From: Gammaproteobacteria bacterium
Lineage (GTDB): Bacteria; Pseudomonadota; Gammaproteobacteria; PS1; Pseudothioglobaceae
NCBI GenBank assembly: GCA_016845205.1
Contig: JAERTA010000068.1
Coordinates: 1 to 56,321 of the forward strand
Length of the DNA stretch: 56,321 nucleotides
Reading direction: 5' to 3'
The notes beneath the pieces were generated by a model. That model saw only the letters and a program-made list of their open reading frames with translations. It did not search any database and was not told the DNA's origin. Numbering within the stretch: the stretch's first letter is position 1; every line of letters begins with the position of its first letter. This document shows positions 4,703 through 37,744 of this stretch, piece after piece. A program made the position numbers and the translations under genes.

Positions 4703-4886
4703 TAATTGTCTGTTGTGTTTGTAGTTGACTATATCCCCTGAGCCGATAAATAAACAACTAAGGAGATGAGATAGCTTACTATTGAGCAAGCCCGTCATGA
4801 AACGGGAAGCCTGCGGTAATCTTCGAACTTCCGCCTTGAGCCTTCTTGGTTCAGGTTTCTTTCAACGCGACACAATGGATCACTCT
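4703..4886 (+). ncRNA. ssrS: 6S RNA (RNA polymerase-sigma70 regulator); ends approximate
   Basis: CCCCTGAGCCGATAAATAAAC closely matches E. coli 6S CCCCUGAGCCGAUAUUUCAUAC. A 3' GGTTCAGG segment pairs back to CCTGAGCC with one G-U. The GAGCA...GAAGCC central segment is conserved. Distal 5'/3' arms are complementary (TTGTGT with ACACAA). The gene sits directly upstream of the 5-formyl-THF cyclo-ligase gene, as ssrS-ygfA does in E. coli. Confidence 0.75.
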
Positions 4887-4917: not shown

Positions 4918-5472
4918 ATGAAGACGCTTAGACAATCCATCCGCATTCAAAGACGATCAGTTCCAGCATCTGAGCGAGAGAAGTTTGCTAAACGATTATT
5001 ACTTCAAGTACAAAAATTAGCAAATTTTAAGAATGGGCAAAAAATTGCGCTTTATTTGCCAAATGATGGTGAAATTAACACTAAATACATACAAAACTTC
5101 TTAAAAAGTAAGGGTATTAGCATATATTTGCCGATATTAGTCGGTAAAAGTCTTAAATTTGCAAAAGTTGGTAAAAATTTCAGAAAAAATCGATATGGCA
5201 TTGATGAGCCCATTTCTACCCAAATTTTAAATGCAAATCAGCTTAATATTATCTTTATGCCGTTGGTGGGTTTTGATCAGTTTAAAAATCGCATTGGTAT
5301 GGGTGGTGGTTTTTATGACCGTACCTTGAGCTTTAAAAATCGACAACAAAATTATAAAAGTCCCAAACTTTATGGTTTGGCTTTTGATTGTCAAGAAGTG
5401 GCTGAGCTCAATGTTAAGCCATGGGATGTGCCACTAGACGCAGTGGTAACGCCGACTACAATTTACCAGTAG
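4918..5472 (+). CDS. ygfA: 5-formyltetrahydrofolate cyclo-ligase
   Basis: Start moved to the ATG at 4918 (MKTLRQSIR...), because the track start at 4846 lies inside the 6S RNA. The GMGGGFYDR motif is typical of 5-FCL. Synteny with ssrS supports the call. Confidence 0.85.
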   Translation: MKTLRQSIRIQRRSVPASEREKFAKRLLLQVQKLANFKNGQKIALYLPNDGEINTKYIQNFLKSKGISIYLPILVGKSLKFAKVGKNFRKNRYGIDEPISTQILNANQLNIIFMPLVGFDQFKNRIGMGGGFYDRTLSFKNRQQNYKSPKLYGLAFDCQEVAELNVKPWDVPLDAVVTPTTIYQ

Positions 5473-6613
5473 CGTGTTTTTGAAAAAATGATTTAAGCGT
5501 CGGATTTTCATTAATCAGATTCATACCAAAACCACGCAACCAACGAAGTGGTTCGTTATTTTCTTTATAAATCCAGTTTAAACCGGTCATGGTTTTTGCC
5601 ATTAGTTCATTATCAAGTCGACGCGCTCTGGCATAAGAACGCAATACACCATAATCACCCAAGGGTTTAGTGCTACTTTGTAATTGATTAGAAAGCTCTT
5701 CAACGTCAGCAAAACCTAAGTTAACGCCTTGCCCTGCAAGCGGGTGAATGTTGTGCGCCGCATCGCCAATCAGCGCCATGTTTTCTTTTACGTAATCTTT
5801 GGCACTGCGCTCAATCAGTGGGAATGCTTGGGCTTTGTTTAGCGCTTTAAACTGGCTAAAACGATACTCAACACCAGCTGATAATCGATCGGCAAAGTCT
5901 TGTGGAGATAACGCCAACAACTCATCGGCCAGAGCGTTTTCAGCTGACCAAACGATTGAGGCTTCATTGTTACTCAGTGGTAACAAGGCGATAATGCTAT
6001 CGGATAAAAAACGTTGCCAAGTGGTGTCTTCAAAACCTTTGTCAGAGTGGATATTACAAATAATGGCTTTTTGCCCATAATTGGTTTCAGTGAACTCAAT
6101 TTGAGCTAAATCACGAATACGTGAACGTGCGCCATCAGCACCAATTAACAAGTGACAAGACAACTGCTGATCATTATCAAGCTGTAATTGGTAGCCCTCA
6201 TCAACCTTATTAATATTATCAAGTTTGGCCTTAATAAACTCAACCTTGGTATCGCTTAACGCTGTAAATATTGCTGACTGAATGGCATCATTTTCAATGA
6301 TATGACCTAAGTGATTAAGTTCATCATCGACAGCATTAAAATCTAAATTGCCATGTGAATTTTGATCCCAAACTTTGGTTTGAGTAAAAGCATGCTTGCG
6401 TTTGATTAAATCCCAAACGCCAAGTCTGGTTAAAAAAGCTTCAGACGTTGGCGTAATAGCACTAACGCGTGCATGAAAATCTTTTTCCAACTTTGGGCTA
6501 GGGTTGTTTGGCTCAATAATGGCAATCGATGCGTTGGTTTTTTGTGCCATACTCAAAGCAAAAGCTTGCCCCACCATGCCGCCGCCGACAACAATAATAT
6601 CAAACTGATTCAT
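5456..6613 (-). CDS. FAD-dependent ubiquinone-biosynthesis hydroxylase, UbiH/UbiI/UbiF family
   Basis: N-terminal FAD-binding GxGxxG motif (IIVVGGGMVGQA) and GDAAHNIHPLAGQGVNLG motif. Confidence 0.85.
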   Translation of the reverse strand: MNQFDIIVVGGGMVGQAFALSMAQKTNASIAIIEPNNPSPKLEKDFHARVSAITPTSEAFLTRLGVWDLIKRKHAFTQTKVWDQNSHGNLDFNAVDDELNHLGHIIENDAIQSAIFTALSDTKVEFIKAKLDNINKVDEGYQLQLDNDQQLSCHLLIGADGARSRIRDLAQIEFTETNYGQKAIICNIHSDKGFEDTTWQRFLSDSIIALLPLSNNEASIVWSAENALADELLALSPQDFADRLSAGVEYRFSQFKALNKAQAFPLIERSAKDYVKENMALIGDAAHNIHPLAGQGVNLGFADVEELSNQLQSSTKPLGDYGVLRSYARARRLDNELMAKTMTGLNWIYKENNEPLRWLRGFGMNLINENPTLKSFFQKHATGKL

Positions 6614-17792: not shown

Positions 17793-19550
17793 TTACGATA
17801 TTAAGTGTTTTAACGGGCTTTTTGATGCAGCTTCTTCATCACCCAACTCTCTCCAGGCAAAGCGCAATGCGTTAGTACGACGATTATAAAAACGGTTGTC
17901 GCCAAATCTATCCATGAAACCCGCTCTTTTCAATACTTTCTCAATACCTTCAGTACGGGCAAACAAGATTTCCACACCATTAGAAGAACAACGATCCAAT
18001 AAACGAGTAAGCATGTCCTCCCCACTAGCGTCAATCCAGTTAATCCCTGCCATATCAACAATAATATACCTTAGACATTTGTGTTTTTCTGCAATTAGTT
18101 TAAGTATCTTGTCTTCAAAATAACCTGCATTAGCAAAATACAGCGACCCCGAATATTTAACAATAGACACCACCTCACATCGTTCTAACTTATTTTCTAA
18201 AGCGTCAACAAACATGGTAGATCCGTCATGCGCAGATAATTCGGTAAATCTAGGCTCCATCGTACGGTAAAGAAACAAACCTAACGATAAAATTATGCCG
18301 ATCATAATACCATTTTCTAAACTCGGAGCAAAAACTAGCGTCAAAGCAAATGTAATGACTGCTACAAACGCATCATGTTTTTCAACTTTCCAGGCTTGCT
18401 TAATAGGCTCAATTTTAATCAGATTAAGAACGGCTGTCATAATAACGGCCGCAAGCGCCGCTTGCGGAATATGATAAAGCAGATCTGTTAACCATAATAG
18501 CGTAAATCCAACCAGTATAGCTGTAACAACCGATGAAAATCCAGTCACTGCTCCAGCAGAAATATTAACCGCAGAACGGGAAAATGACCCTGATATTGGG
18601 TACCCTTGAAACACACCTGAAACAAAATTTGCCAAACCTTGGCCCATCAGCTCTTGATTAATATCAAGACGCTGCTTTGTTTTAGCCTGCATAACTTTGG
18701 CAATGGCAATCGCTTCCATAAAACCAATCAATGCAATCGTGATGGCAATCACTACCATTTCGTTCATTGCTGAAAAGTCAACGTCTGGCATTATAAAATC
18801 AGGCAGCCCTTCTGGAATTTCACCAACTATCGCACCACCAAGCCCGCCTTCTTCAATAGGTTTACCAAAATCAATCAACCATGAAACAAAAGTGGCAGAA
18901 GCTACAGCAATCAACACGCCTGGTAATTTTGGCTGGTACCTTCTAATACCAATAATAATAATCGAAGCAACAATTGCAAAAACAAGGGTTATAAAATGGG
19001 TATTAGTTGCTGCATTAATAACCGTACCCCAAACCTGTTCATAACTGTATTCACCAGGCCCTTTGGCAACACCAAAAATCTTATTTAATTGTGAAGCAGC
19101 AATAATAATTGCTGCCGCATTAGTAAAGCCAATAACCACAGGATGGGATAAAAAATTTATCACAAAGCCTAGTTTCAGCGCTCCCATGGCGAATCGAAAA
19201 AATCCCACCATAAGTGCAAGTAACGAAGCGTAAGCTGCGTAGGTCACCATATCTGCTCCTTCAGGAACAACCGATGGTATAGCTGCAGCAGTTAGAAGGG
19301 ATACAATGGCAACAGGGCCCGTGCCTAATTGACGAGAAGAGCCCATCAAGGCTGCTATCATTACAGGCAAAAATGACGCATATAAACCGTATTGTGGCGC
19401 TAGCCCTGCTAGTTGTGCGTATGCCATTGATTGTGGCACCAAAACCAATGCAACCGTTAAACCTGCAACAATATCAGCTCTTAGAACTTTCTGATCTTTT
19501 AACTCGTGTATCCAAGCCAAGAAAGGAAAAAACTTTGCAAATTTATTCAT
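17793..19550 (-). CDS. SulP-family anion (sulfate/bicarbonate) transporter with C-terminal STAS domain
   Basis: SulP N-terminal signature (ADIVAGLTVALVLVPQSMAYAQLAGL) and a STAS-like C-terminus. Start taken at the ATG at 19550; the track uses TTG at 19568. Confidence 0.85.
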   Translation of the reverse strand: MNKFAKFFPFLAWIHELKDQKVLRADIVAGLTVALVLVPQSMAYAQLAGLAPQYGLYASFLPVMIAALMGSSRQLGTGPVAIVSLLTAAAIPSVVPEGADMVTYAAYASLLALMVGFFRFAMGALKLGFVINFLSHPVVIGFTNAAAIIIAASQLNKIFGVAKGPGEYSYEQVWGTVINAATNTHFITLVFAIVASIIIIGIRRYQPKLPGVLIAVASATFVSWLIDFGKPIEEGGLGGAIVGEIPEGLPDFIMPDVDFSAMNEMVVIAITIALIGFMEAIAIAKVMQAKTKQRLDINQELMGQGLANFVSGVFQGYPISGSFSRSAVNISAGAVTGFSSVVTAILVGFTLLWLTDLLYHIPQAALAAVIMTAVLNLIKIEPIKQAWKVEKHDAFVAVITFALTLVFAPSLENGIMIGIILSLGLFLYRTMEPRFTELSAHDGSTMFVDALENKLERCEVVSIVKYSGSLYFANAGYFEDKILKLIAEKHKCLRYIIVDMAGINWIDASGEDMLTRLLDRCSSNGVEILFARTEGIEKVLKRAGFMDRFGDNRFYNRRTNALRFAWRELGDEEAASKSPLKHLIS

Positions 19551-19731
19551 GAAATTAGCTACTTTCAAATATTACAAGAATGACTCTGTTTCTTACTACA
19601 GAGTGTGTTTAGAGATTTTAACTTAGCGATTGTAAAAAATAAAATCGCTTGTGCTTTTATATATTAGATAATTATAACATACTTATAGGCTAACCCTTCT
19701 CAGGATTGGCCTACACTACACTATATCAAAA

Positions 19732-23031: not shown

Positions 23032-23271
23032 TTAATCAGGCCAAATACGTTTTGGATGGCTGATAGAGTTTGTTGCTAACTTCTTGACGACAGGCTTCTT
23101 AGTAACAGTCTTTTTAGTTACTTTTTTCTTAGCTACTGGCTTCTTAGCAGCAACTTTTTTAGCAACTGGTTTTTTAGCTGGACTTTTCTTAGCTATTGGC
23201 TTTTTAACAACGGGCTTATCCTGCTCTGGCTTGTTAATACTCTCAACTAACTTATCTTCTAATTTACTCAT
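23032..23271 (-). CDS. mcdB: Lys-rich 79-aa pentapeptide-repeat protein, copy 1 (McdB-like candidate carboxysome adaptor)
   Basis: Own SD (AAGGAG) upstream of the ATG. Nine consecutive xxxKK pentads and a C-terminal ...HPKRIWPD with a single Trp. Lies downstream of the ParA-like gene within the carboxysome cluster. The function is inferred. Confidence 0.55.
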   Translation of the reverse strand: MSKLEDKLVESINKPEQDKPVVKKPIAKKSPAKKPVAKKVAAKKPVAKKKVTKKTVTKKPVVKKLATNSISHPKRIWPD

Positions 23272-23306
23272 GCGGCACTCCTTAGTTTAATACTTAACAA
23301 AAACAA

Positions 23307-23546
23307 TCAATCAGGCCAAATACGTTTTGGATGGCTGATAGAGTTTGTTGCTAACTTCTTGACGACAGGCTTCTTAGTAACAGTCTTTTTAGTTACTTTT
23401 TTCTTGGCTACTGGCTTCTTAGCAGCAACTTTTTTAGCAACTGGTTTTTTAGCTGGACTTTTCTTAGCTATTGGCTTTTTAACAACAGGCTTATCCTGCT
23501 CTGGCTTGTTAATACTCTCAACTAACTTATCTTCTAATTTACTCAT
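23307..23546 (-). CDS. mcdB: Lys-rich 79-aa pentapeptide-repeat protein, copy 2 (McdB-like), protein identical to copy 1
   Basis: SD-like AAGGGGAG upstream, 14 nt after the ParA-like stop codon. Translation is identical to copy 1. Confidence 0.55.
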   Translation of the reverse strand: MSKLEDKLVESINKPEQDKPVVKKPIAKKSPAKKPVAKKVAAKKPVAKKKVTKKTVTKKPVVKKLATNSISHPKRIWPD

Positions 23547-24510: not shown

Positions 24511-24939
24511 TTAATTTAATTCAAGCATCCACTTTTCAATGGACTTTAGATGATGTTTCTCTTCTTCCAGTAGTGCGTTAAATAATTCATACCCATGAAT
24601 AAGGCCACTATTTAAACAATATTGGCTTGCGTCACTGTACAGTTCTACAACATCTTTTTCGAGTTGCCAATCTACAATCAATATCTCTTTCAATGTTCTT
24701 GTCTTTGGTATTGATTTTAATTGTGTAGTAGACGCTGTTAAACCCAACTTCAGCATGAAATTAATGAGTCTAGATGCATGGTCAAACTCTTCTTTTGCCT
24801 CTTCTTCAAACTTTGATGCTGCGGATTCTAAACCCCAAATTTTGCATAAATTAGATTGGGTCGTATAATACTGGATAGCTGACATTTCGTGCTCCAGCCC
24901 TCGCCTCAAATACCAACTAAGTTTTGAATTGGCCAACAT
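24511..24939 (-). CDS. Ferritin/bacterioferritin-like four-helix-bundle protein of the carboxysome operon
   Basis: Start moved to the ATG at 24939, 4 nt after the csoS4B stop; the track start would overlap csoS4B by 47 nt. Di-iron ligand pattern is E...ExxH twice (LEHE, EEFDH, LEKD, EEKHH). Confidence 0.7.
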   Translation of the reverse strand: MLANSKLSWYLRRGLEHEMSAIQYYTTQSNLCKIWGLESAASKFEEEAKEEFDHASRLINFMLKLGLTASTTQLKSIPKTRTLKEILIVDWQLEKDVVELYSDASQYCLNSGLIHGYELFNALLEEEKHHLKSIEKWMLELN

Positions 24940-24943
24940 AGAA

Positions 24944-25204
24944 TTATCTCTTTGGCTCTGGCCATTCCCATTGATCAATAATCCCAACAATTGTTAAATC
25001 AGTTGCTGAATCATAGCTTGGCATTGCCCATCTCGCAGCAGATCCACTTGCTGTTACAACCCATTTTCCAATGCCAACACCGACTGGGTCAGAAGCACAC
25101 CACACCTTCCCCTTTAGGTCTTTCATTACTCTTAACGAAATACCTTCTAATTGCTTAACAGACCGAGTGCAAACTAGATCTTCTTGGACTTGCATTATTT
25201 CCAT
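24944..25204 (-). CDS. csoS4B: Carboxysome pentameric vertex protein CsoS4B (EutN/CcmL family)
   Basis: 86 aa. MEIMQV...SAAR...DLTIVGIID pattern of EutN/CcmL. Second of two paralogs after csoSCA. Confidence 0.9.
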   Translation of the reverse strand: MEIMQVQEDLVCTRSVKQLEGISLRVMKDLKGKVWCASDPVGVGIGKWVVTASGSAARWAMPSYDSATDLTIVGIIDQWEWPEPKR

Positions 25205-25212
25205 GTAGACTT

Positions 25213-25473
25213 CTACCCTTTCTGATCTTTATCCCAATAATCGATAATACCGACTATTGTTAAATCACTTGGATAATCCTTGCTTCCGGCAGACTCTCGT
25301 GCTGCCGAACTTCCTACACAAATTACCCAATCACCTGGAATGCAGCCAACAGCATCAACTGCTACTAATGGCGTGCCGTTAGGCTTATCTCGTACAACAA
25401 GCAAAGGTCTTAAACCTAAATTTTTAATACGATTGGTTGAGACAAGAGTCTTTTCTACTTGCATTATTCTCAT
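25213..25473 (-). CDS. csoS4A: Carboxysome pentameric vertex protein CsoS4A (EutN/CcmL family)
   Basis: 86 aa (MRIMQVEKTLVSTNRI...SSAARES...DLTIVGIIDYW). The start overlaps the csoSCA stop (TAATG). Confidence 0.9.
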   Translation of the reverse strand: MRIMQVEKTLVSTNRIKNLGLRPLLVVRDKPNGTPLVAVDAVGCIPGDWVICVGSSAARESAGSKDYPSDLTIVGIIDYWDKDQKG

Positions 25474-27059
25474 TATGCTTCCTCACTTATAATTTCAAGA
25501 CTGCTGCCTAATGGTAGATCTTGAATGCTAATTTGAAAAAATAAATTATTATTTTCACCTAATGTTTTGTATCTATTTAATATCGCATTTTTAACACGAT
25601 AACATTTTTCTATCAACCTTTTCCTTGATCCAGGCACTTTAGAATCATAACGATAATGAATAGCAATAGGTGCTGGCAATCCTTTATTTAGATTTAATCC
25701 TGTAAAAATTTTAATACCAATATCTAAATCTGCCGAACCCTCTTCAACAGTATCTAAATGCGCAAAGTAGGCAATATTTCGCAATTGGATCTCTTGAAAA
25801 CCGTCGCCTACGCTAATATAACGTTCAGCGTGACCAATATCTGGATAGATACCACCGTATAAATCGGCAACATACTCAATCTGAGATAAATTATATTCAA
25901 GCAAGTTGGCAACAACTTTTCTCATGCCTTCATGAGGCCTTCCATCGCCTTGTGCCCAGCCAGATGAATCACTACAAATATCAATAGCGTTATATAATTT
26001 AACTCTTGCCTGATCAATGCTCATTGACAATGTTTCGTTATATAATTGAGATGTATCGACATATCGATGCACACTTATATTGCCAGCTGAATCAGGCACA
26101 TGTACACGAATAGAATCATTATCAGTATCAACACCAATCAATAAAATATCAATTGCAGATCCACAACAATAGGTATTTTCGATTGCTTCACGAAACTCTG
26201 TTAACTTCTCTAAGCCGGCTTCAGCAGATACTTTATCATTACTGCCATGAGCAGCACATCCTTGATGCGAAGGGTCAGAACCACTTCTATGATAGACAAC
26301 AATCTTTAAATAACTATTTCCATCGTCAAGAACTTTACCATTTCTTAACCTGTCTAGCTCAATTTTCTCCCAATCGCGCACATTGGACTCAACATTAAAT
26401 AATGCCCCAGCATAAGAATTACGAACAGTAATTGCCGATAAAGGTAAACGTAAAATATACTTAGCAAGCCCTTTCAAACGACCATCAGAGCAAGGTGTAA
26501 TATCAACACTGTGATAGCCACAGTCCAAAAAGAAACTGCCAGCGTCTACTCTTAAATCTTCATTTCTCCCTAAATCATCTGAGAACTGAGCGACCGAACT
26601 ATTTAACGCATTAAAAACAGCTTTAGCATATAAAGCTTTCATGTCTAAACCATCAACCCAGGCAGTTTCTAACAATTCAGTTGGAAAGTTAAAACCAAGC
26701 TCTTTTGAGGTGATAGAATTTGCCTTAGAAACAAAATCATTCTCATGTTGTAAATTTGCAAGTTTTTTTAAAGTTGGTGTAATCGAATCAAAGCGAACTT
26801 TAATGGATTCCTCACACCTGGCTAAATGAGCATTCTGCCTCATATTTGTCAAAGGATGTCTACACGAGCGTTCTGGCATAGTGTCACACACCGTATTTAA
26901 ATCCATTGGAGTTTTAGCACCAATATCGTAATCTTGTTTAGAGGAATAAGAACTTTTGGCTTGTGGGAGTGCACTTGATTGTGCCATCCCAACTGGTGCT
27001 TTGTTTAAAGGACTAGAAACACGAGAGGCTCTAATCTTGTAAGCATTCCTGGTATTCAT
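25473..27059 (-). CDS. csoSCA: Carboxysome shell carbonic anhydrase CsoSCA (CsoS3)
   Basis: 528 aa. Beta-CA-like zinc/catalytic motifs CSDGR (DITPCSDGRLKG) and HQGC (SHQGCAAHGS). Canonical position after csoS2. Confidence 0.9.
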   Translation of the reverse strand: MNTRNAYKIRASRVSSPLNKAPVGMAQSSALPQAKSSYSSKQDYDIGAKTPMDLNTVCDTMPERSCRHPLTNMRQNAHLARCEESIKVRFDSITPTLKKLANLQHENDFVSKANSITSKELGFNFPTELLETAWVDGLDMKALYAKAVFNALNSSVAQFSDDLGRNEDLRVDAGSFFLDCGYHSVDITPCSDGRLKGLAKYILRLPLSAITVRNSYAGALFNVESNVRDWEKIELDRLRNGKVLDDGNSYLKIVVYHRSGSDPSHQGCAAHGSNDKVSAEAGLEKLTEFREAIENTYCCGSAIDILLIGVDTDNDSIRVHVPDSAGNISVHRYVDTSQLYNETLSMSIDQARVKLYNAIDICSDSSGWAQGDGRPHEGMRKVVANLLEYNLSQIEYVADLYGGIYPDIGHAERYISVGDGFQEIQLRNIAYFAHLDTVEEGSADLDIGIKIFTGLNLNKGLPAPIAIHYRYDSKVPGSRKRLIEKCYRVKNAILNRYKTLGENNNLFFQISIQDLPLGSSLEIISEEA

Positions 27060-27068
27060 GATGCGAAA

Positions 27069-29528
27069 TTAACCGCGTGCGCCGCCAGATAAAGTTACTC
27101 TTGAAGAGCCACCATCTGTACCATTTCCACCACCGCTACCATTAGTAATCTTAGGGCCTTCAACAATAGTCACTTCTCGATCCTTAAGTGCATGAGCACC
27201 AACTTTATGATCGTGATTTGGATTGCCTTTTTGCGTATCATTTCGATTAGAAGAGAACATACCTTCAGTGCCAGTAATTTGTCCACCACGGGACCAATTA
27301 TCACCTGTGACATCTGAACCGATTTCGTTGCCTTCGCCAGTCACAACTTTTGTCGGCTCTGAAGAAATAGCAACCTCCTGTTGAGATGCTTCATACGGAT
27401 GTCTAAATTCTGGTGTGCCTGTCATTACACCTTGCGCTTTAGCAACTGGGCCGGTAATTCTTGCATTGGTTCCAAAAACACTGTCATGGACTCTTTCAGA
27501 TCTACTCTGAAATGCCACACGAGCAGGCGACTGAACCGAAAAGTTTGCGTCATATTGCTCAGCTTGGCCTTCATTCTTGAGATAAGGTGTGCCACTAATT
27601 GACTGATCAAAACCCTTATTAAAATTACCAGAGAAACGTTGATCTTCTGTTGGTACCGTGCCACTTACCTCTTGCATTGTATGTGTTTTTCTCATTCTTT
27701 GCTCACTTTCAGCTACTGCTGACGTATCACAAAACTGACTCATCTCATCTCTAGATCTATAGCTGCTTCCAGAAATAGGACTACAACCACCAACTTCGTC
27801 ACCAGTCACTATCTCAGATTGACTAACTTGCGACCCAGAAACTTGTTGATCGTTCCATGTGTGACTTACTGTGTCTTTAAACTGTGCTGCCATCGGTACA
27901 AAAGAACATCTTTGCTCAAAACTTTCCTTACTAACATATTCGTTTCCGGTGACACCCAGGCACATGCCATAGTTGTCACCCGTTAGCTTTGGGGAGCCAT
28001 TAACCTCACTACCAGAAACACGATTACCAGTAATAGTATGTGTTTGATTTACTTTATCCGAACGCTGGTCGCACAAGCCTTTATTCGCAGAACTGTCATA
28101 TTGACTCCCAGTTAAACGCTGGCATGTTCCAGGCTCATTGCCAGTTACTTTCTCATCTCTATCCATCATGTTACCTGTAACACCCATACCCTTACGAGTG
28201 CTATCAACAGAAACCTTATTTGGTGTCAATGGGGCTTGAGTTCCACAATTAGCAATATATCTTTCATTAGAGACATATTCGGTGCCAGTCACTCTTTCAC
28301 ATGAGTCTTGAGCATCGCCTGTAACGGCTAGTGGTGATGATAATTCGCCACCTGATATTACAGAGCCATTATTTGTATGATTCACATCAACCTTAGTCGC
28401 ACCAACATTTGAACGACTAAAAGGGGCAGTTGAATAGTCAGAACCAGTAATTGCATGGCCGGCACCTGACTCAGAACCGGTTGTTGCATTTGCTCTAGCC
28501 TCATCTGCTCCAGTTATTGCTAAATTTTTTTTTGACGGTGTTGACATTACCTTGTGATGCGATGAAACAGCATCTGTATTAGAACATGCATTTGAATAAT
28601 GATCATAGCCCAAGTATTCATTACCTGTAATTACATTGCATGAACCAGGTTCGGTGCCAGTAATTTTAGAAGTAGACTCGACCAAAGTACCCGTCATTGT
28701 CTGACCTTTAGTTGTTTGAGTTTCACCAACCTTGGGTTCGTTTGCCTGAGGTGTTGTTGAGCATAATTGTGAAAATTGCTCAGCGCCTAAATACTCAGTG
28801 CCTGTAATTCCCTTACAACCGCCGGCTTCACTACCTGTAATCTTTTGTGTTTGTTCAACTTGAGTTCCACTAACTGTTTGACCTGCTAGTGTAGTACCTA
28901 GTTCAACTTTAGATGGAGCAGAACCTGGTCTAACTCTACCGCTTGGACGACAAGCTTCTTTATTGCCACGGCCAACTGTGCATCTTTCTTCACGCTTAAT
29001 TTTGGCTAGATCACGACCCGACATAGAGTTTTTATTATTATTAACTCTAGATCTTCTTGCTTCTCTACCAACTTTGCCTGGTAATGCTTGTTTGCCAGTT
29101 TTTGACATTTGTCTGCGTCTATCTCTACAGAAAGCTCTAACAGATGAACTAGCATTTGATTGACCAGCATCAACTAGCTCACAAATTGCATCTATTTTTA
29201 CATCGCCTTCTTGCGTAGATTGTTTATCATTGCAAGGAGAGCATGTTTCTTTCAAACCCTTTTCCTTGCAATCATCACAACAATACTCAAAGTTATCGTT
29301 TTCTACTGCTTGAGTATTGTTGTTTAATTCGTTATCTGTAGTGTTGTCTACAGTAGTATTTGACTGAACTTCTTGACCAATATTTGGGTTTGCTACTACA
29401 GCTGATTGTCTTCCTCTAGGGTTTACTCGACCAGTTTTTTTCATACCGGCAGAACCTGTTTTAGACATTTGCTGACGTCTGAGCATTGACCTCTCGCGTC
29501 CAGAAAGTTTTTCTGTTGAATTTGTCAT
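27069..29528 (-). CDS. csoS2: CsoS2 carboxysome scaffold protein
   Basis: 819 aa of low complexity. Three basic N-terminal motifs (RRQQMSKTG, RDRRRQMSKTGK, AKIKREERCTVGRG), seven middle repeats carrying [VI][TS]G triplets and paired Cys, and a C-terminal region with VTG/ITG motifs and a Gly-rich tail. Confidence 0.9.
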   Translation of the reverse strand: MTNSTEKLSGRERSMLRRQQMSKTGSAGMKKTGRVNPRGRQSAVVANPNIGQEVQSNTTVDNTTDNELNNNTQAVENDNFEYCCDDCKEKGLKETCSPCNDKQSTQEGDVKIDAICELVDAGQSNASSSVRAFCRDRRRQMSKTGKQALPGKVGREARRSRVNNNKNSMSGRDLAKIKREERCTVGRGNKEACRPSGRVRPGSAPSKVELGTTLAGQTVSGTQVEQTQKITGSEAGGCKGITGTEYLGAEQFSQLCSTTPQANEPKVGETQTTKGQTMTGTLVESTSKITGTEPGSCNVITGNEYLGYDHYSNACSNTDAVSSHHKVMSTPSKKNLAITGADEARANATTGSESGAGHAITGSDYSTAPFSRSNVGATKVDVNHTNNGSVISGGELSSPLAVTGDAQDSCERVTGTEYVSNERYIANCGTQAPLTPNKVSVDSTRKGMGVTGNMMDRDEKVTGNEPGTCQRLTGSQYDSSANKGLCDQRSDKVNQTHTITGNRVSGSEVNGSPKLTGDNYGMCLGVTGNEYVSKESFEQRCSFVPMAAQFKDTVSHTWNDQQVSGSQVSQSEIVTGDEVGGCSPISGSSYRSRDEMSQFCDTSAVAESEQRMRKTHTMQEVSGTVPTEDQRFSGNFNKGFDQSISGTPYLKNEGQAEQYDANFSVQSPARVAFQSRSERVHDSVFGTNARITGPVAKAQGVMTGTPEFRHPYEASQQEVAISSEPTKVVTGEGNEIGSDVTGDNWSRGGQITGTEGMFSSNRNDTQKGNPNHDHKVGAHALKDREVTIVEGPKITNGSGGGNGTDGGSSRVTLSGGARG

Positions 29529-29617
29529 ATTAAATTCCGTTTATAAGTACTTAAATATTTTTGCTAATGTTTATTAATAAACCATTAACAAATTTAAGTT
29601 TTATATAATCATTTCTA

Positions 29618-29643
29618 GGCGAATAACACAAAAGTTATTCACC
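29618..29643 (-). other. Stem-loop in the 129-nt csoS1-csoS2 spacer
   Basis: Minus-strand RNA GGUGAAUAAC-UUUUGU-GUUAUUCGCC forms a 10-bp stem with one G-U, starting 14 nt after the csoS1 stop. No adjacent U-tract, so it is not a canonical terminator. Confidence 0.4.
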
Positions 29644-29657
29644 TAAAAAATGACTGA

Positions 29658-29954
29658 TTAAACTTCAGCCGCTGAAGGCAGAATGTTTTCAACTTCGCCG
29701 TGAACACGCGCAATAATGTGGGCTGCTACCAGACCATCACCTACACGCTCACATGCGTCAGCGCCAGCACGTACTGCTGCGTTTACCGCACCAGTTTCAC
29801 CACGTACTAATACTGTTACATAACCGCCACCAACGAACTGACGACCAACTAAACGAACTTCTGCCGCTTTGGTCATAGCATCGGCCGCTTCAATAGCAGG
29901 AACAAGACCTCTAGTCTCGATCATGCCCAATGCGATTCCTGTTACATCACTCAT
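29658..29954 (-). CDS. csoS1: Carboxysome major shell protein CsoS1 (BMC-H hexamer)
   Basis: 98 aa. [32 protein letters not shown]...[23 protein letters not shown] is the canonical BMC-domain sequence. Confidence 0.95.
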
Positions 29955-29977
29955 AGTATTTCTCCTATATTTTTATA

Positions 29978-30307
29978 TTAGCCGCGATAAACAACGAAGT
30001 TCATACCTTGACTTTGTGAATAATTATCATAACCAAGCAAACGAACGTGGTGGTTAGGATACTCTCTATGACAAGCTTCTAGCTCTGCTAGAACTACATC
30101 AACTGATTGCTCACCAAACATTGGCAATTTCCACATGTACCAGTAATAAGTCATAGAACGCGCTGGCTCTACATGCTCAATTGCTGGATTCCATCCATTG
30201 TTAATGATGAACTGAATGTGTTGTCTTGTTTGATCAGGTGTCATCTGTGGTAAGTATGAAAAAGTTTCAAACTTAGGTCCAGATTTATAATCTTGCATTT
30301 CACTCAT
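29978..30307 (-). CDS. cbbS: RuBisCO small subunit (form IA)
   Basis: 109 aa (ETFSYLP...WNPAIEH...[11 protein letters not shown]). Lies immediately downstream of cbbL. Confidence 0.95.
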
Positions 30308-30336
30308 AATAATTCCTCTTCTTTAAATTAAACCAA

Positions 30337-31755
30337 TTAACGGTTTTGACCGTCTAGTTTATCAACTGTGTCAAACTCAAACTTAATTTCTTTCCATGTT
30401 TCCATAGCAATCTTAAGTTCTGGACTATGTGCAGCAGCACTCTCCATTACAGCTTTACCTTCACGCTCTACATCAATACCGCGGTTACGCGCATCAACAC
30501 AAGCTTCAAGTGCAACACGGTTTGCAGCAGCACCTGCGGCATTACCCCATGGGTGACCTAACGTACCACCACCAAACTGTAGTACAGAATCGTCACCAAA
30601 GATTGCAACTAGTGCAGGCATATGCCATACATGAATACCACCCGATGCAACAGGCATTGTGCCTGGCATTGAACCGAAATCTTGGTCAAAGAAAATACCA
30701 CGACTACGATCTTCAGGAACAAATGATTCACGCATTAAGTCAATCCAACCTAATGTTGCTTCACGATCACCTTCTAGCTTACCTACAACAGTACCAGAGT
30801 GCATATGATCACCACCAGATAAACGTAAAGTTTTCGCTAATACTCTGAAGTGAATACCATGATGTGGGTTACGATCAACTACAGCGTGCATTGCACGGTG
30901 AATGTGTAACAATACACCGTTCTTAGCACACCAGCGCGCTAAACCTGTGTTTGCACAAAAACCACCAGTAAAGAAGTCATGCATAATAATTGGTGACTTA
31001 ATTTCTTTTGCAAATTCTGCACGTTCATACATTTCTTCCGGAGAAGCTGCTGTTACGTTTAAGTAGTGACCCTTACGCTCACCTGTTTCTTGTTCTGCAG
31101 TTTCAATTGCATCCTGACAGAATAAGAAACGATCACGCCAGCGCATAAACGGTTGAGAGTTTACGTTCTCATCATCCTTTGTAAAGTCTAAACCACCACG
31201 CAAACATTCGTATACCGCACGACCATAGTTCTTAGCTGATAAACCAAGTTTTGGCTTAATTGTACAACCTAACATTGGGCGACCGTATTTATTCATCTTG
31301 TCACGCTCTACTTGGATACCATGCGGAGGACCATTACAAGTCTTAACATATGCAAGAGAGAATCTAATGTCTTCTAAACGAAGGGCTCGTACTGCCTTAA
31401 ATCCAAATACGTTACCAACTAGTGAAGTTAGTACGTTTACAATTGATCCTTCTTCAAATAAGTCAATTGGGTAAGCAATAAATGCATAGTAACAACTATC
31501 ATCACCTGGTACATCTTCAATACGGTAACAACGGCCACGGTAGTAATCCATGTCTGTTAGTAAGTCTGTCCATACTGTAGTCCAAGTACCTGTTGAAGAT
31601 TCAGCAGCAACCGCAGCAGCAGCTTCTTCACGATCAATACCTGGTTGTGGTGTGATCTTAAAACAAGCCAATAAGTCCGAATCTAACGGAACATAATCAG
31701 GTTGCCAGTAAGTTTCGCGGTAATCCTTTACACCCGCTTCGTATTTTTTGGCCAT
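30337..31755 (-). CDS. cbbL: RuBisCO large subunit (form I, green-type IA)
   Basis: 472 aa. [10 protein letters not shown] (carbamylated-Lys motif), [11 protein letters not shown] and [13 protein letters not shown] strong SD (AAGGAGG) lies 5 nt upstream. Confidence 0.97.
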
Positions 31756-31972
31756 TAAGCCCTCCTTTCTTTATAAATTTAATAAAAATTCAAAATGCCT
31801 GGCAATCATACAATATTATATTCATAGAGTAAAATAATATTTTTTTAAAAAATAATAATTTTAACTTATGATTATTTTTGCATTGTTCTATCGCACCTTG
31901 TTACCATAACGCTTTACAAGTTTTGTGATTTAGAGAGTACTTATAATTAACAAGCATGATAAATTTTATTTT
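31756..31972 (-). promoter_or_regulatory. cbbL upstream region (SD and candidate promoter elements)
   Basis: 217-nt AT-rich spacer between rimM and cbbL. SD AAGGAGG at 31761-31767. A perfect TATAAT on the minus strand at 31815-31820, but no convincing -35 element. Confidence 0.35.
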
Positions 31973-32516: not shown

Positions 32517-32996
32517 TTACTCAGCAGCCTCTTCCTCTGATGACGCTTCTTCTGCAGGTGTTTCTGCTTCAGATTCTGCTGCCGCAGCTGCTTCGGCTTC
32601 GGCTGCTGCCTTAGCTTCTGCTTGTTCTGCTGCTTTTGCTTCAGCTTCAGCTTTTGCCTCTTCGTCCGCTTTTGCTTTAGCTTCAGCTGCTAATTTAGCT
32701 GCTACTGCCGCTGCTCTAGCTTCTTGCGCTGCAACACGTTTTTCACGAATTGAAGGGTCTTTAAACTCTTTGACAAGTTGCTTAACACGATCAGAGATTT
32801 GTGCACCTTTTGATGCCCAGTAATCTAATCTATCTTCTTCGATGGTAAGCCTAACTTCTTGTCCACGAGCTACTGGATTAAAATATCCAATACGCTCAAT
32901 GTAACCACTATCTCTACGTTTTCTAGAGTCTGTTGCTACAATTGAATAAAAAGGTTTTTTCTTGGCTCCACCTCGGGCTAATCTAATTTTAACCAT
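32517..32996 (-). CDS. rpsP: 30S ribosomal protein S16 with an approximately 75-aa Ala/Glu/Lys-rich C-terminal extension
   Basis: [41 protein letters not shown] is the canonical S16 core (about 82 aa). It is followed by a low-complexity [19 protein letters not shown]... tail. Confidence 0.9.
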
Positions 32997-37654: not shown

Positions 37655-37744
37655 GGAGGGATGGCAGAGCGGCTGAATGCACCGGTCTTGAAAACCGGCA
37701 AGGGTTAATCCCCTTCTAGGGTTCAAATCCCTATCCCTCCACCA
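37655..37744 (+). tRNA. tRNA-Ser (anticodon UGA), CCA encoded
   Basis: 7-bp acceptor stem GGAGGGA/TCCCTCC, anticodon loop CTTGAAA, long variable arm (CAAGGGTTAATCCCCTTC), T-arm GGTTCAAATCC, and a 3' ACCA end. Confidence 0.9.

Follow-up and report, generated by a model that had tools for sequence, protein, structure and literature searches.

A probable alpha-carboxysome island with csoS1 placed behind cbbS in a SUP05-clade gammaproteobacterium

Whether a bacterium of the SUP05 clade can carry a complete carboxysome is the question raised by a metagenomic contig, which was analysed here as one stretch of 56 kb (56,321 nucleotides, the window). SUP05 is a lineage of marine sulfur oxidisers, and its studied genomes are described as being without carboxysomes and DIC transporters (PMC2642828; PMC10880623). 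The locus is read here as an intact alpha-carboxysome CO2-concentrating island of approximately 14 kb, with csoS1 relocated behind cbbS, and the sequence gives this reading a probability of roughly 0.85. It is a known cso-type system with standard gene content, and its unusual points are the host lineage and the csoS1 placement. The parts, i.e., cbbLS, csoS1, csoS2, csoSCA, csoS4AB, ferritin-like gene, acRAF, mcdA, two mcdB, cbbOQ, and SulP, are listed in Table 1 in gene order.

Table 1. Features of the carboxysome island and its borders, with positions in the window.
Feature	Position	Strand	Basis or remark
Intergenic rimM/cbbL, 217 nt, AT-rich	31756..31972	(-)	presumed operon promoter (inferred only)
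cbbL, form IA (carboxysome-type) RuBisCO large subunit, 472 aa	30337..31755	(-)	Pfam RuBisCO_large 7e-137
cbbS, RuBisCO small subunit, 109 aa	29978..30307	(-)	Pfam RuBisCO_small 1.2e-39
csoS1, BMC-H major shell hexamer protein, 98 aa	29658..29954	(-)	NCBIfam BMC_CsoS1 equivalog; Pfam BMC 2e-25
Conserved RNA hairpin, ~21 bp, 2 nt past csoS1 stop	29607..29655	(-)	candidate attenuator or 3'-stabiliser
csoS2, disordered scaffold CsoS2B, 819 aa	27069..29528	(-)	Pfam CsoS2_M 1e-146
-1 slippery heptamer C CCA AAG, codons S512-P513-K514	27987..27993	(-)	in-frame in csoS2
Predicted stem-loop, candidate frameshift stimulator	27931..27986	(-)	core stem 6 nt past slippery site
csoSCA, carboxysomal carbonic anhydrase, 528 aa	25473..27059	(-)	three CsoSCA Pfam domains (CsoSCA_cat 2.5e-99)
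csoS4A, BMC-P vertex pentamer, 86 aa	25213..25473	(-)	NCBIfam carboxysome_A 154 bits, cut-off 120; EutN_CcmL 5e-24
csoS4B, BMC-P vertex pentamer, 86 aa	24944..25204	(-)	NCBIfam carboxysome_B 119.5 bits, cut-off 88.9; EutN_CcmL 6e-20
Ferritin/bacterioferritin-like gene, 142 aa, ATG start	24511..24939	(-)	Pfam Ferritin 1e-19
acRAF-like (pterin-dehydratase-fold) RuBisCO assembly factor, 107 aa	24183..24506	(-)	PDB match 4LOW
mcdA, ParA-type ATPase, carboxysome positioning, 209 aa	23561..24190	(-)	Pfam AAA_31 and CbiA
mcdB copy 1, 79 aa, Lys-rich, disordered, ends IWPD	23307..23546	(-)	translation
mcdB copy 2, protein identical to copy 1	23032..23271	(-)	275-nt tandem duplication, 99% nt identity
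cbbO, VWA-domain adaptor of CbbQO RuBisCO activase, 804 aa	20590..23004	(-)	Pfam VWA; NorD-type PDB matches
cbbQ, AAA+ RuBisCO activase subunit, 267 aa	19732..20535	(-)	Pfam CbbQ_C 6e-35, AAA_5 7.5e-33
SulP/STAS anion transporter, candidate bicarbonate importer	17793..19550	(-)	Pfam Sulfate_transp 4e-106 and STAS
CitMHS/TrkA_C (SLC13) permease, 647 aa	15794-17737		native flanking gene, outside island

The first-pass annotation had described eight minus-strand genes from cbbL to the ferritin-like gene, and all ORFs were recovered with the same positions and lengths. The junctions measured, in that order, 29, 23, 129, 9, -1 (TAATG), 8, and 4 nt, which agrees exactly with the 1-nt overlap of csoSCA and csoS4A, the 129-nt spacer and the 4 nt between csoS4B and the ferritin-like gene that it had reported. 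The profile search it had proposed detected the RuBisCO, BMC, CsoS2, CsoSCA, and EutN_CcmL domains, all far beyond chance, and the top PDB match of CbbL was the H. neapolitanus carboxysomal RuBisCO (1SVD, E 4e-297). The assignment to a complete cso-type alpha-carboxysome operon of known family was supported on every testable point.

CsoSCA matched PDB entries 2FGY and 9G4T (E ~1e-168). The active site of the enzyme, in H. neapolitanus numbering, is formed by C173, D175, R177, H242, C253, H397, and E399 (PMC9164163 Table 2). The equivalents in the window, i.e., C190, D192, R194, H257, C268, H410, and E412, were all kept and were invariant in an 18-sequence alignment. The strings CSDGR and HQGC, earlier named as zinc-site motifs, were both present. 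Of the latter, C268 alone belongs to the active site; the His of the published list corresponds to H257, which lies in 'VYH'.

CsoS2 was composed of three N-repeats and seven M-repeats, six of the latter having Cys pairs, and its C-terminal domain ended in SGGARG. Over its entire length it aligned with CsoS2B of H. neapolitanus, down to the final SGGARG (E 6e-116), and it scored under the cut-off of the lineage-specific NCBIfam CsoS2 equivalogs. After the slippery heptamer, the -1 frame reads Ala-Asn-Gly-stop, so the predicted CsoS2A has 517 aa. The downstream stem-loop has a dG of -20.1 kcal/mol (z -2.6). The same heptamer with a three-codon -1 tail was found at the homologous SPK(L/M)TGD site in 58 of 72 full-length csoS2 genes, and the site in the window aligns with P566-K567 of H. 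neapolitanus CsoS2. CsoS2A of H. neapolitanus has 570 aa, three of them from the -1 frame (PMC5009743). With all these sequence hallmarks present, csoS2 carries a conserved signal for a predicted -1 programmed frameshift, placed where frameshifting has been validated in H. neapolitanus.

The csoS1 product scored 186 bits against the BMC_CsoS1 equivalog (cut-off 166) and was approximately 96% identical to H. neapolitanus CsoS1A. All 17 conserved residues of PMC9164163 Table 2 were found in it by reading (17/17). No second BMC-domain ORF was detected by hmmsearch in the whole window, and neither a CsoS1B gene nor a BMC-T (CsoS1D-type) gene was found in it; a BMC-T gene may be placed elsewhere in the genome. 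The order cbbL, cbbS, csoS2, csoSCA, csoS4AB, csoS1 is typical of cso loci, not defining (PMC9164163). The window departs from it: csoS1 sits between cbbS and csoS2, which bears out the earlier claim of an order unlike the Halothiobacillus type. The same placement was found in 6 of 80 surveyed loci, i.e., the closest ones (L001-L006), and in none of the 74 others. The independent assemblies L081-L088 and L094 likewise have csoS1 between cbbS and csoS2, and L003 has it at both sites, upstream of csoS2 and after csoS4B, as an intermediate.

The claim of a single csoS1 held only in part. One BMC ORF is present in the window, but the true copy number may be higher: in the nearest relatives csoS1 occurs as tandem copies that are up to 100% identical, and the gene is where several contigs break. 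The number cannot be taken from an assembled contig. The chance is a little short of even that the single csoS1 is an assembly artefact, i.e., that at least two near-identical tandem copies between cbbS and csoS2 were collapsed by the short-read assembler. The complete 1.3-Mb chromosome L005 has three upstream csoS1 copies, with a 369-nt unit repeated 2.8 times at 100% identity. In L002 (a 96%-identical MAG) and L082, Ns interrupt a second copy, and contigs L084, L085, and L086 stop after the first 33 nt of one. L087 has a full copy between two partial ones; its copies differ at synonymous sites, and the protein of the full copy is exactly the CsoS1 of the window. Contig L001 begins where the repeat units join, immediately ahead of csoS1, and L003, L004, and L095 begin inside the gene. 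Against a collapse, the window, L081, L083, L088, and the 107-kb contig L094 read straight through one copy, the same assembler kept apart the two mcdB copies of the window, which are 99% identical, and copy number may simply differ among strains.

Structured RNA in the 129-nt spacer behind csoS1, like the csoS2 frameshift site, had been missed by the first-pass annotation. The hairpin (dG -23.9 kcal/mol, z -6.3) follows the last csoS1 in 10 of 10 relatives, and the stem sequences differ. The stem covaries, with both-side changes in 6 of 21 pairs, and 94% of cells were paired, compared with at most 49% in slid controls. It is not a textbook intrinsic terminator because a clean U-tract after the stem is absent. 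On its 3' side, a second AT-rich structured segment was found, and the last 20 nt ahead of csoS2 are conserved. In the nearest canonical loci, the spacer between cbbS and csoS2 is long and contains a strong hairpin directly after cbbS; csoS1 therefore appears to have joined the promoter-proximal RuBisCO module. The hairpin is a candidate boundary element between cbbLS-csoS1 and the genes from csoS2 onwards, and may act in attenuation, 3' stabilisation, or processing.

A full terminator, giving two operons (cbbL-cbbS-csoS1 and csoS2-...-cbbQ) with the second one driven by a promoter of its own in the distal, AT-rich half of the spacer, would fit the high stability of the hairpin, the structured segment and the conserved 20 nt. 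Transcript steps after cbbS, reportedly seen in H. neapolitanus, would point the same way. This arrangement is unlikely, as the stem is without a U-tract and the sense strand of the spacer gave no convincing -35/-10 pair; from sequence alone it is also indistinguishable from partial attenuation. In the 217-nt gap between rimM and cbbL, only consensus-level promoter-like hexamers were found, and the scan was not enriched compared with shuffles.

Downstream, the acRAF-like, McdAB-like, cbbOQ, and transporter genes listed earlier were located, i.e., a Pterin_4a-like gene, a ParA-type ATPase, two Lys-rich ORFs, cbbO, cbbQ, SulP, and CitMHS/TrkA_C. The ferritin-like protein scores under the cut-off of the bfr equivalog, and in the majority of the 80 loci of the survey its homolog is next to the carboxysome genes, as is cbbO. 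The acRAF-like protein had acRAF 4LOW as its top PDB match (E 7e-9; true PCD, 0.006). A true pterin dehydratase (PCD) was rejected for this gene, with all PCD equivalogs under cut-off and acRAF closer.

McdA was borderline against NCBIfam ParA_partition (179.9 bits, cut-off 180), and its deviant Walker A box, KGGCGKST, lies at residues 12-19 with the signature Lys visible. Alpha-McdB proteins are small and disordered, with biased composition, a charged N-terminus, and an invariant C-terminal V(I)WPD (PMC8359340). Both McdB copies start with MSKLEDKLVE, end with IWPD, and have Lys at 24 of 79 residues (30%). An alpha-McdAB pair is thus recognised from the Walker A box and Lys of McdA in a cso locus and from the termini and composition of McdB. 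Within one organism the two mcdB copies are nearly the same (3 nt apart in the window, 2 nt in L002), whereas the window and L002 are 12-13 nt apart from each other, a pattern indicative of concerted evolution.

An AAA+ CbbQ with CbbQ_C together with a VWA-domain CbbO identifies CbbQO. The SulP gene probably starts at ATG 19550, giving 585 aa, and its product passes the NCBIfam sulP subfamily cut-off. A BicA ortholog was rejected (equivalog 160.8 bits, cut-off 880; BicA 6KI1 only a distant PDB match), and among solved structures those of sulfate transporters come closest. Approximately 29 of 80 loci have a SulP gene no more than 10 kb away from the carboxysome genes, and it is from gene neighbourhood only that bicarbonate is suggested as the substrate.

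The island extends over approximately 17.8-32.0 kb of the window, between rimM and the native SLC13 permease gene. A supercluster of about 16 kb (15.8-31.8 kb) had been proposed; its downstream genes were as described, but it is one gene too long, because the CitMHS/TrkA_C permease gene also flanks the slot in carboxysome-less SUP05 genomes, where it is a conserved chromosomal neighbour. Ca. Thioglobus autotrophicus (CP137632) and the Bathymodiolus septemdierum symbiont (AP013042) are colinear with the window on both sides, in the order acnB-purB-rpsP-rimM-[beta-CA]-SLC13-truA-dagK-..., without cso genes. Identity to these two was 85-87% for PurB, 80-84% for the SLC13 permease, and 77-83% for TruA. 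Their rimM/SLC13 slot holds a beta-carbonic anhydrase gene instead of the 14-kb island, and that of the mussel symbiont AP013042 also a transposase and two unannotated ORFs. No beta-CA homolog was found in the window. The host was assigned to the SUP05 clade, i.e., the Ca. Ruthturnera/Thioglobus group: PurB proteins that cluster with that of the window at 90% identity or above bear the names Ca. Ruthia, Ruthturnera, or Thioglobus, and the top genome match was a Ca. Ruthturnera MAG (L002, 96%).

In such a host, the locus could be a decaying or non-organelle-forming relic with RuBisCO free in the cytoplasm. To our knowledge, Thiobacillus denitrificans gives a precedent, with cso genes present and no carboxysomes seen. 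The lack of carboxysomes and DIC transporters in the studied SUP05-clade genomes agrees with a relic, as do the absence of a BMC-T gene from the window and the presence of only one transporter candidate. However, all 15 genes (15/15) are intact with tight or overlapping junctions, each listed active-site or conserved residue is kept, and the frameshift signal and hairpin are maintained. The locus is also kept at 73-96% CsoSCA identity in at least six genomes and many metagenomes, and the csoS1 copies of L087 differ at synonymous sites. A relic is therefore very improbable.

The intact island shares with H. neapolitanus form IA RuBisCO, CsoS2, CsoSCA, CsoS4A/B, and CsoS1, then the ferritin-like protein, acRAF, McdA, McdB, CbbO, and CbbQ, with mcdA after acRAF. 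CsoSCA and CsoS2 align over full length, with the frameshift site at the homologous Pro-Lys. In H. neapolitanus, however, csoS1 follows csoS4B, and csoS1C/A/B plus csoS1D are present, compared with one BMC-H gene in the window. Its CsoS2 has 869 aa and four N-repeats, whereas that of the window has 819 aa and three by count. Tandem mcdB and the SulP gene are peculiar to the window in this comparison; no DAB genes were found in the window, whereas in H. neapolitanus they lie between cbbO and cbbQ.

In Prochlorococcus and marine Synechococcus, which have small streamlined marine genomes, the major shell gene csoS1 lies near the promoter together with cbbL and cbbS, and csoS2-csoSCA-csoS4AB come after them. 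There csoS1 precedes cbbL, whereas in the window it follows cbbS. These cyanobacteria are without McdAB (PMC8359340); the window has both McdA and McdB, and its CsoS2 keeps the frameshift signal. The nearest outgroup, L007-L020, consists of marine Thiotrichaceae/gammaproteobacterial MAGs with canonical order and 60-64% CsoSCA identity. They share the downstream ferritin-like gene, acRAF, mcdA, cbbO, cbbQ, and SulP, a Cys-rich CCxxC...CxxC insert in the N-terminal region of CsoS2, and the frameshift heptamer. They differ in having one to four csoS1 after csoS4B, a hairpin directly 3' of cbbS, and one more N-repeat in CsoS2.

From the known families, the SulP transporter would raise cytoplasmic bicarbonate, which would enter a shell of CsoS1 hexamers and CsoS4A/B pentamers. 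CsoSCA would convert it to CO2 beside form IA RuBisCO. CsoS2 would glue RuBisCO to the shell, in an 819-aa full-length form and a 517-aa form made by -1 frameshift at C CCA AAG. RuBisCO would be assembled and reactivated by acRAF and CbbQO, and the organelles spaced along the nucleoid by McdA and McdB. What is particular to this lineage is the operon layout: the csoS1 gene has moved from behind csoS4B to directly behind cbbS, upstream of a conserved hairpin like the one seen after cbbS in canonical loci. The three most abundant structural proteins would then share a promoter-proximal, hairpin-bounded segment, with csoS2 and the later genes behind the hairpin; in relatives, csoS1 is amplified at this place as a tandem array. 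We infer that the operon architecture may be tied to expression.

It is tempting, and at present rather doubtful, to go further and see a SUP05 subclade with a streamlined alpha-carboxysome. It would use one hexamer type, with stoichiometry set by csoS1 in the RuBisCO unit ahead of the hairpin and by a concertedly evolving tandem dose, and the island would have taken the chromosomal place of a cytoplasmic beta-carbonic anhydrase gene. From such an enzyme, a short circuit of CO2 concentration is to be expected.

The locus leaves the general picture of carboxysomes as it was; the system is of the textbook kind. For carboxysome engineering, it offers a compact natural design with a single type of hexamer gene, two pentamers, and a CsoS2 of reduced length, and the different gene order suggests a route to expression ratios via operon layout and gene dosage. 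The SUP05 bacteria, an abundant group of the ocean, contribute in a major way to dark carbon fixation, be it in oxygen-minimum zones, in hydrothermal plumes, or in symbioses with animals. A SUP05 subclade with a full carboxysome and a transporter would imply adaptation to low-CO2 or oxygenated water, and would therefore bear on the modelling of SUP05 carbon fixation.

The core operon was recognized by an ORF map, profile searches and residue comparison. The eight minus-strand genes of the first-pass annotation were recovered at identical positions and with identical junctions (Table), i.e., 29, 23, 129, 9, -1 (TAATG), 8, and 4 nt from cbbL to the ferritin-like gene. The domain profile check that it had proposed returned Pfam matches across the core genes, from 1e-19 to 1e-146. 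CsoS1, CsoS4A, and CsoS4B scored above the NCBIfam equivalog cut-offs, and CsoS1 shared approximately 96% identity with Halothiobacillus neapolitanus CsoS1A. The nearest match of CbbL was the carboxysomal enzyme of H. neapolitanus.

Table. Core genes of the alpha-carboxysome locus in the window
Gene	Position	Strand	Source
cbbL	30337-31755	minus	ORF map
cbbS	29978-30307	minus	ORF map
csoS1	29658-29954	minus	ORF map
csoS2	27069-29528	minus	ORF map
csoSCA	25473-27059	minus	ORF map
csoS4A	25213-25473	minus	ORF map
csoS4B	24944-25204	minus	ORF map
ferritin-like gene	ATG at 24939, 4 nt past csoS4B stop	minus	ORF map

CsoSCA matched 2FGY at approximately 1e-168. Seven active-site residues of this enzyme have been tabulated (PMC9164163), and their equivalents in the window protein, i.e., C190, D192, R194, H257, C268, H410, and E412, were invariant in 18 homologs. 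The motif HQGC had been read as a zinc site; its Cys is a listed active-site residue, but its His is not, the listed His being H257. In one relative, a Ca. Thioglobus MAG (L006), a 197-nt gap (5416-5612) was found where the ferritin-like gene was expected, and therefore this gene appears dispensable within the clade.

The position of csoS1 was compared in 80 genome loci pulled with the CsoSCA profile. Only the six loci closest to the window (L001-L006, 73-96% CsoSCA identity) had csoS1 between cbbS and csoS2. The gene was never placed there in the remaining 74, which had one to four copies after csoS4B where the contig was long enough. The typical cso gene order is stated in PMC9164163. The description of csoS1 between cbbS and csoS2, in an order other than that of Halothiobacillus, was thus upheld, and the same order was found in independent metagenome assemblies. 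Mis-assembly would be another source of such an odd order, but it was ruled out by the agreement of more than 10 independent assemblies. Because the nearest outgroups are canonical, the cbbS-csoS1-csoS2 arrangement is derived. Intermediates were also found. L003 carries csoS1 both ahead of csoS2 and after csoS4B, and L005 carries three copies upstream of csoS2.

No other BMC-domain ORF, BMC-T included, was found in the window, so the report of a single csoS1 holds for the window. It may not hold as a chromosomal copy number, as relatives show tandem arrays. In the complete 1.3-Mb chromosome of L005, a 369-nt csoS1 unit occurs in 2.8 tandem copies that are 100% identical. Among independent assemblies and relatives, a second copy is broken by Ns in L002 and L082, and the contigs of L084, L085, and L086 end 33 nt inside it. 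The L001 contig begins immediately ahead of csoS1, at the junction of the repeat, and L003, L004, and L095 begin within the gene. L087 has a partial-full-partial series whose copies differ at synonymous sites and are therefore real paralogs. One copy was read through in the window, L081, L083, L088, and L094. The single csoS1 of the window therefore either reflects the strain as it is or results from the collapse of a repeat.

The 129-nt spacer between csoS1 and csoS2 folds at -40.4 kcal/mol (z -7.4 against shuffled controls). It contains a hairpin of approximately 21 bp (29607-29655), which starts 2 nt past the csoS1 stop codon (dG -23.9, z -6.3). MAFFT and RNAalifold found no consensus for six divergent spacers, in which the hairpins were misaligned, and the hairpin was tested instead by per-sequence folding and by alignment of close relatives with explicit structure. 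The ten relatives examined all have a hairpin with a differing stem at this point, and L005 has one between its csoS1 copies as well. Five close sequences were aligned, and both sides were altered in 6 of the 21 pairs; 94% of cells were paired versus at most 49% with the partner slid. The closest canonical loci differ in having long cbbS-csoS2 spacers, with strong hairpins directly after cbbS. No U-tract was found after the stem in the spacer, and a promoter scan showed no informative enrichment, with 60 sites against 49 expected. The hairpin may act on the transcript as an attenuator, a terminator or a stabilizer. In this lineage, csoS1 would lie with cbbL and cbbS in a promoter-proximal segment ahead of the hairpin. 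We infer that the relocation of csoS1 may couple high expression of these three bulk components and lower that of csoS2 and the later genes, which would be a control of stoichiometry.

The alignment of CsoS2 with H. neapolitanus CsoS2B covered both proteins from end to end. Codons 512-514 (27993-27987) hold an in-frame C CCA AAG, past which the -1 frame has a tail of three codons closed by a stop. A stem-loop is predicted downstream, with its core stem 6 nt past the heptamer (z -2.6). The heptamer and the three-codon tail, at the homologous SPK(L/M)TGD, were present in 58 of 72 full-length csoS2 genes. The site aligned with P566-K567 of H. neapolitanus CsoS2, and it agrees with the end of the published CsoS2A, which is 570 aa long and takes its last three residues from the -1 frame (PMC5009743). 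With this putative frameshift, the gene is predicted to yield a 517-aa CsoS2A next to the 819-aa CsoS2B. The protein has three N-repeats, one fewer than its nearest canonical relatives, and seven M-repeats, six of which carry Cys pairs. Between the first and second N-repeats, a Cys-rich acidic insert, CCDDC-x8-CSPC ... ICELVD, was observed (residues 83-120, approximately 29170-29282). The insert is conserved in L001-L018, a clade of marine gammaproteobacteria, and is shortened to 'LCEIVE' elsewhere. It may act as an element sensitive to metals or redox state.

Genes resembling acRAF, McdAB and cbbOQ had been placed downstream of the operon, which was borne out by matches, motifs and domains. 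The Pterin_4a-like gene matches acRAF (4LOW, 7e-9) better than it matches a true dehydratase (0.006). In the ParA-type gene, the Walker A motif is of the deviant kind and includes the signature lysine. Two 79-aa ORFs encode identical proteins with an IWPD end, a charged N-terminus and 30% Lys, and both show the features published for alpha-McdB (PMC8359340). The cbbO (VWA domain) and cbbQ (CbbQ_C domain) genes come next.

The mcdB genes form a tandem duplication with a 275-nt unit in the window (23032-23546), and also in L002 (13514-14028) and L003 (6516-7243). Within the window the two copies are 3 nt apart, and within L002 they are 2 nt apart, against 12-13 nt between the two organisms; to judge from their sequences, they are evolving in concert. 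The two copies of L003 are identical, and L004-L006 and L094 have one copy. Contig ends fall inside mcdB in L092, L093, and L095. Published second mcdB genes are 'orphans' without the charged N-terminus (PMC8359340), whereas the window-type copies are full-length and identical.

The SulP/STAS gene after cbbQ, a putative DIC transporter, passed the SulP subfamily model and fell below the BicA equivalog cut-off, by which BicA orthology was ruled out. In L003-L005, sbtA (Sbt_1, 1.7e-114; L005 17225-18472) and a P-II-like sbtB were observed between cbbQ and SulP. The same interval is a mere spacer of approximately 160-190 nt in the window (19569-19731), L001, L002, and L094. The DIC-transporter complement is therefore variable within the clade.

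The flanking PurB clustered at 90% identity or above with proteins of Ca. Ruthia, Ruthturnera, Thioglobus, and 'hydrothermal vent metagenome'. The top genome match was a MAG of Ca. Ruthturnera, a genus within the SUP05 group (CsoSCA 96%). The complete SUP05 genomes of Ca. Thioglobus autotrophicus and the Bathymodiolus septemdierum symbiont lack carboxysome genes at this locus. Both have the order acnB-purB-rpsP-rimM-[beta-CA]-SLC13/TrkA_C permease-truA-dagK-lipoate/biotin-ligase-family gene-ABC-tsaD-comM, and the window flanks are colinear with it on either side. The acquired block is therefore the rimM-cbbL spacer to SulP, approximately 17.8-32.0 kb. The 647-aa CitMHS/TrkA_C gene had been included in the CCM supercluster, but synteny ruled this out. 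It shares 80-84% identity with its counterparts in both carboxysome-less relatives, where it is native flank, and is beside none of 74 non-SUP05 carboxysome loci. The splitting of an rpsP-rimM-trmD-rplS operon by the island was also ruled out. Beyond truA are dagK and the lipoate/biotin ligase-family gene, with no trmD or rplS, and the order is the same in relatives.

A beta-CA gene lies between rimM and the SLC13 permease in the carboxysome-less genomes (L089 3971-4564; L090 7113-7769), and the mussel symbiont has a transposase and two unannotated ORFs in this slot as well. No beta-CA homolog was found in the window. A CCM would not be expected to work alongside a cytoplasmic CA, and the replacement of beta-CA by the cso island may therefore be meaningful. 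The neighboring rpsP ORF (32517-32996, minus strand) encodes 159 aa, approximately twice the 62-position Ribosomal_S16 Pfam domain (residues 8-68), and its C-terminal extension differs among relatives (137-159 aa). The sole Rfam gathering-level matches in the whole window were 6S (SsrS) RNA (80.8 bits, 4704-4885, plus strand) and a tRNA (37655-37741, plus strand), none being inside the carboxysome locus.

Reviews describe vesicomyid symbionts as lacking carboxysomes (PMC2642828). This locus was not described in the carboxysome literature searched for SUP05, Thioglobus, Thioglobaceae, and Ruthia, a weak absence given an incomplete searchable library. GenBank MAGs already carry automatic annotations of its homologs. 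The gene identities are shown here, and the locus would most likely function as a standard alpha-carboxysome CCM with a lineage-specific operon layout. It is a known system in a lineage from which no earlier account of it was found, with a modest architectural variant, and is useful rather than surprising for the specialist.
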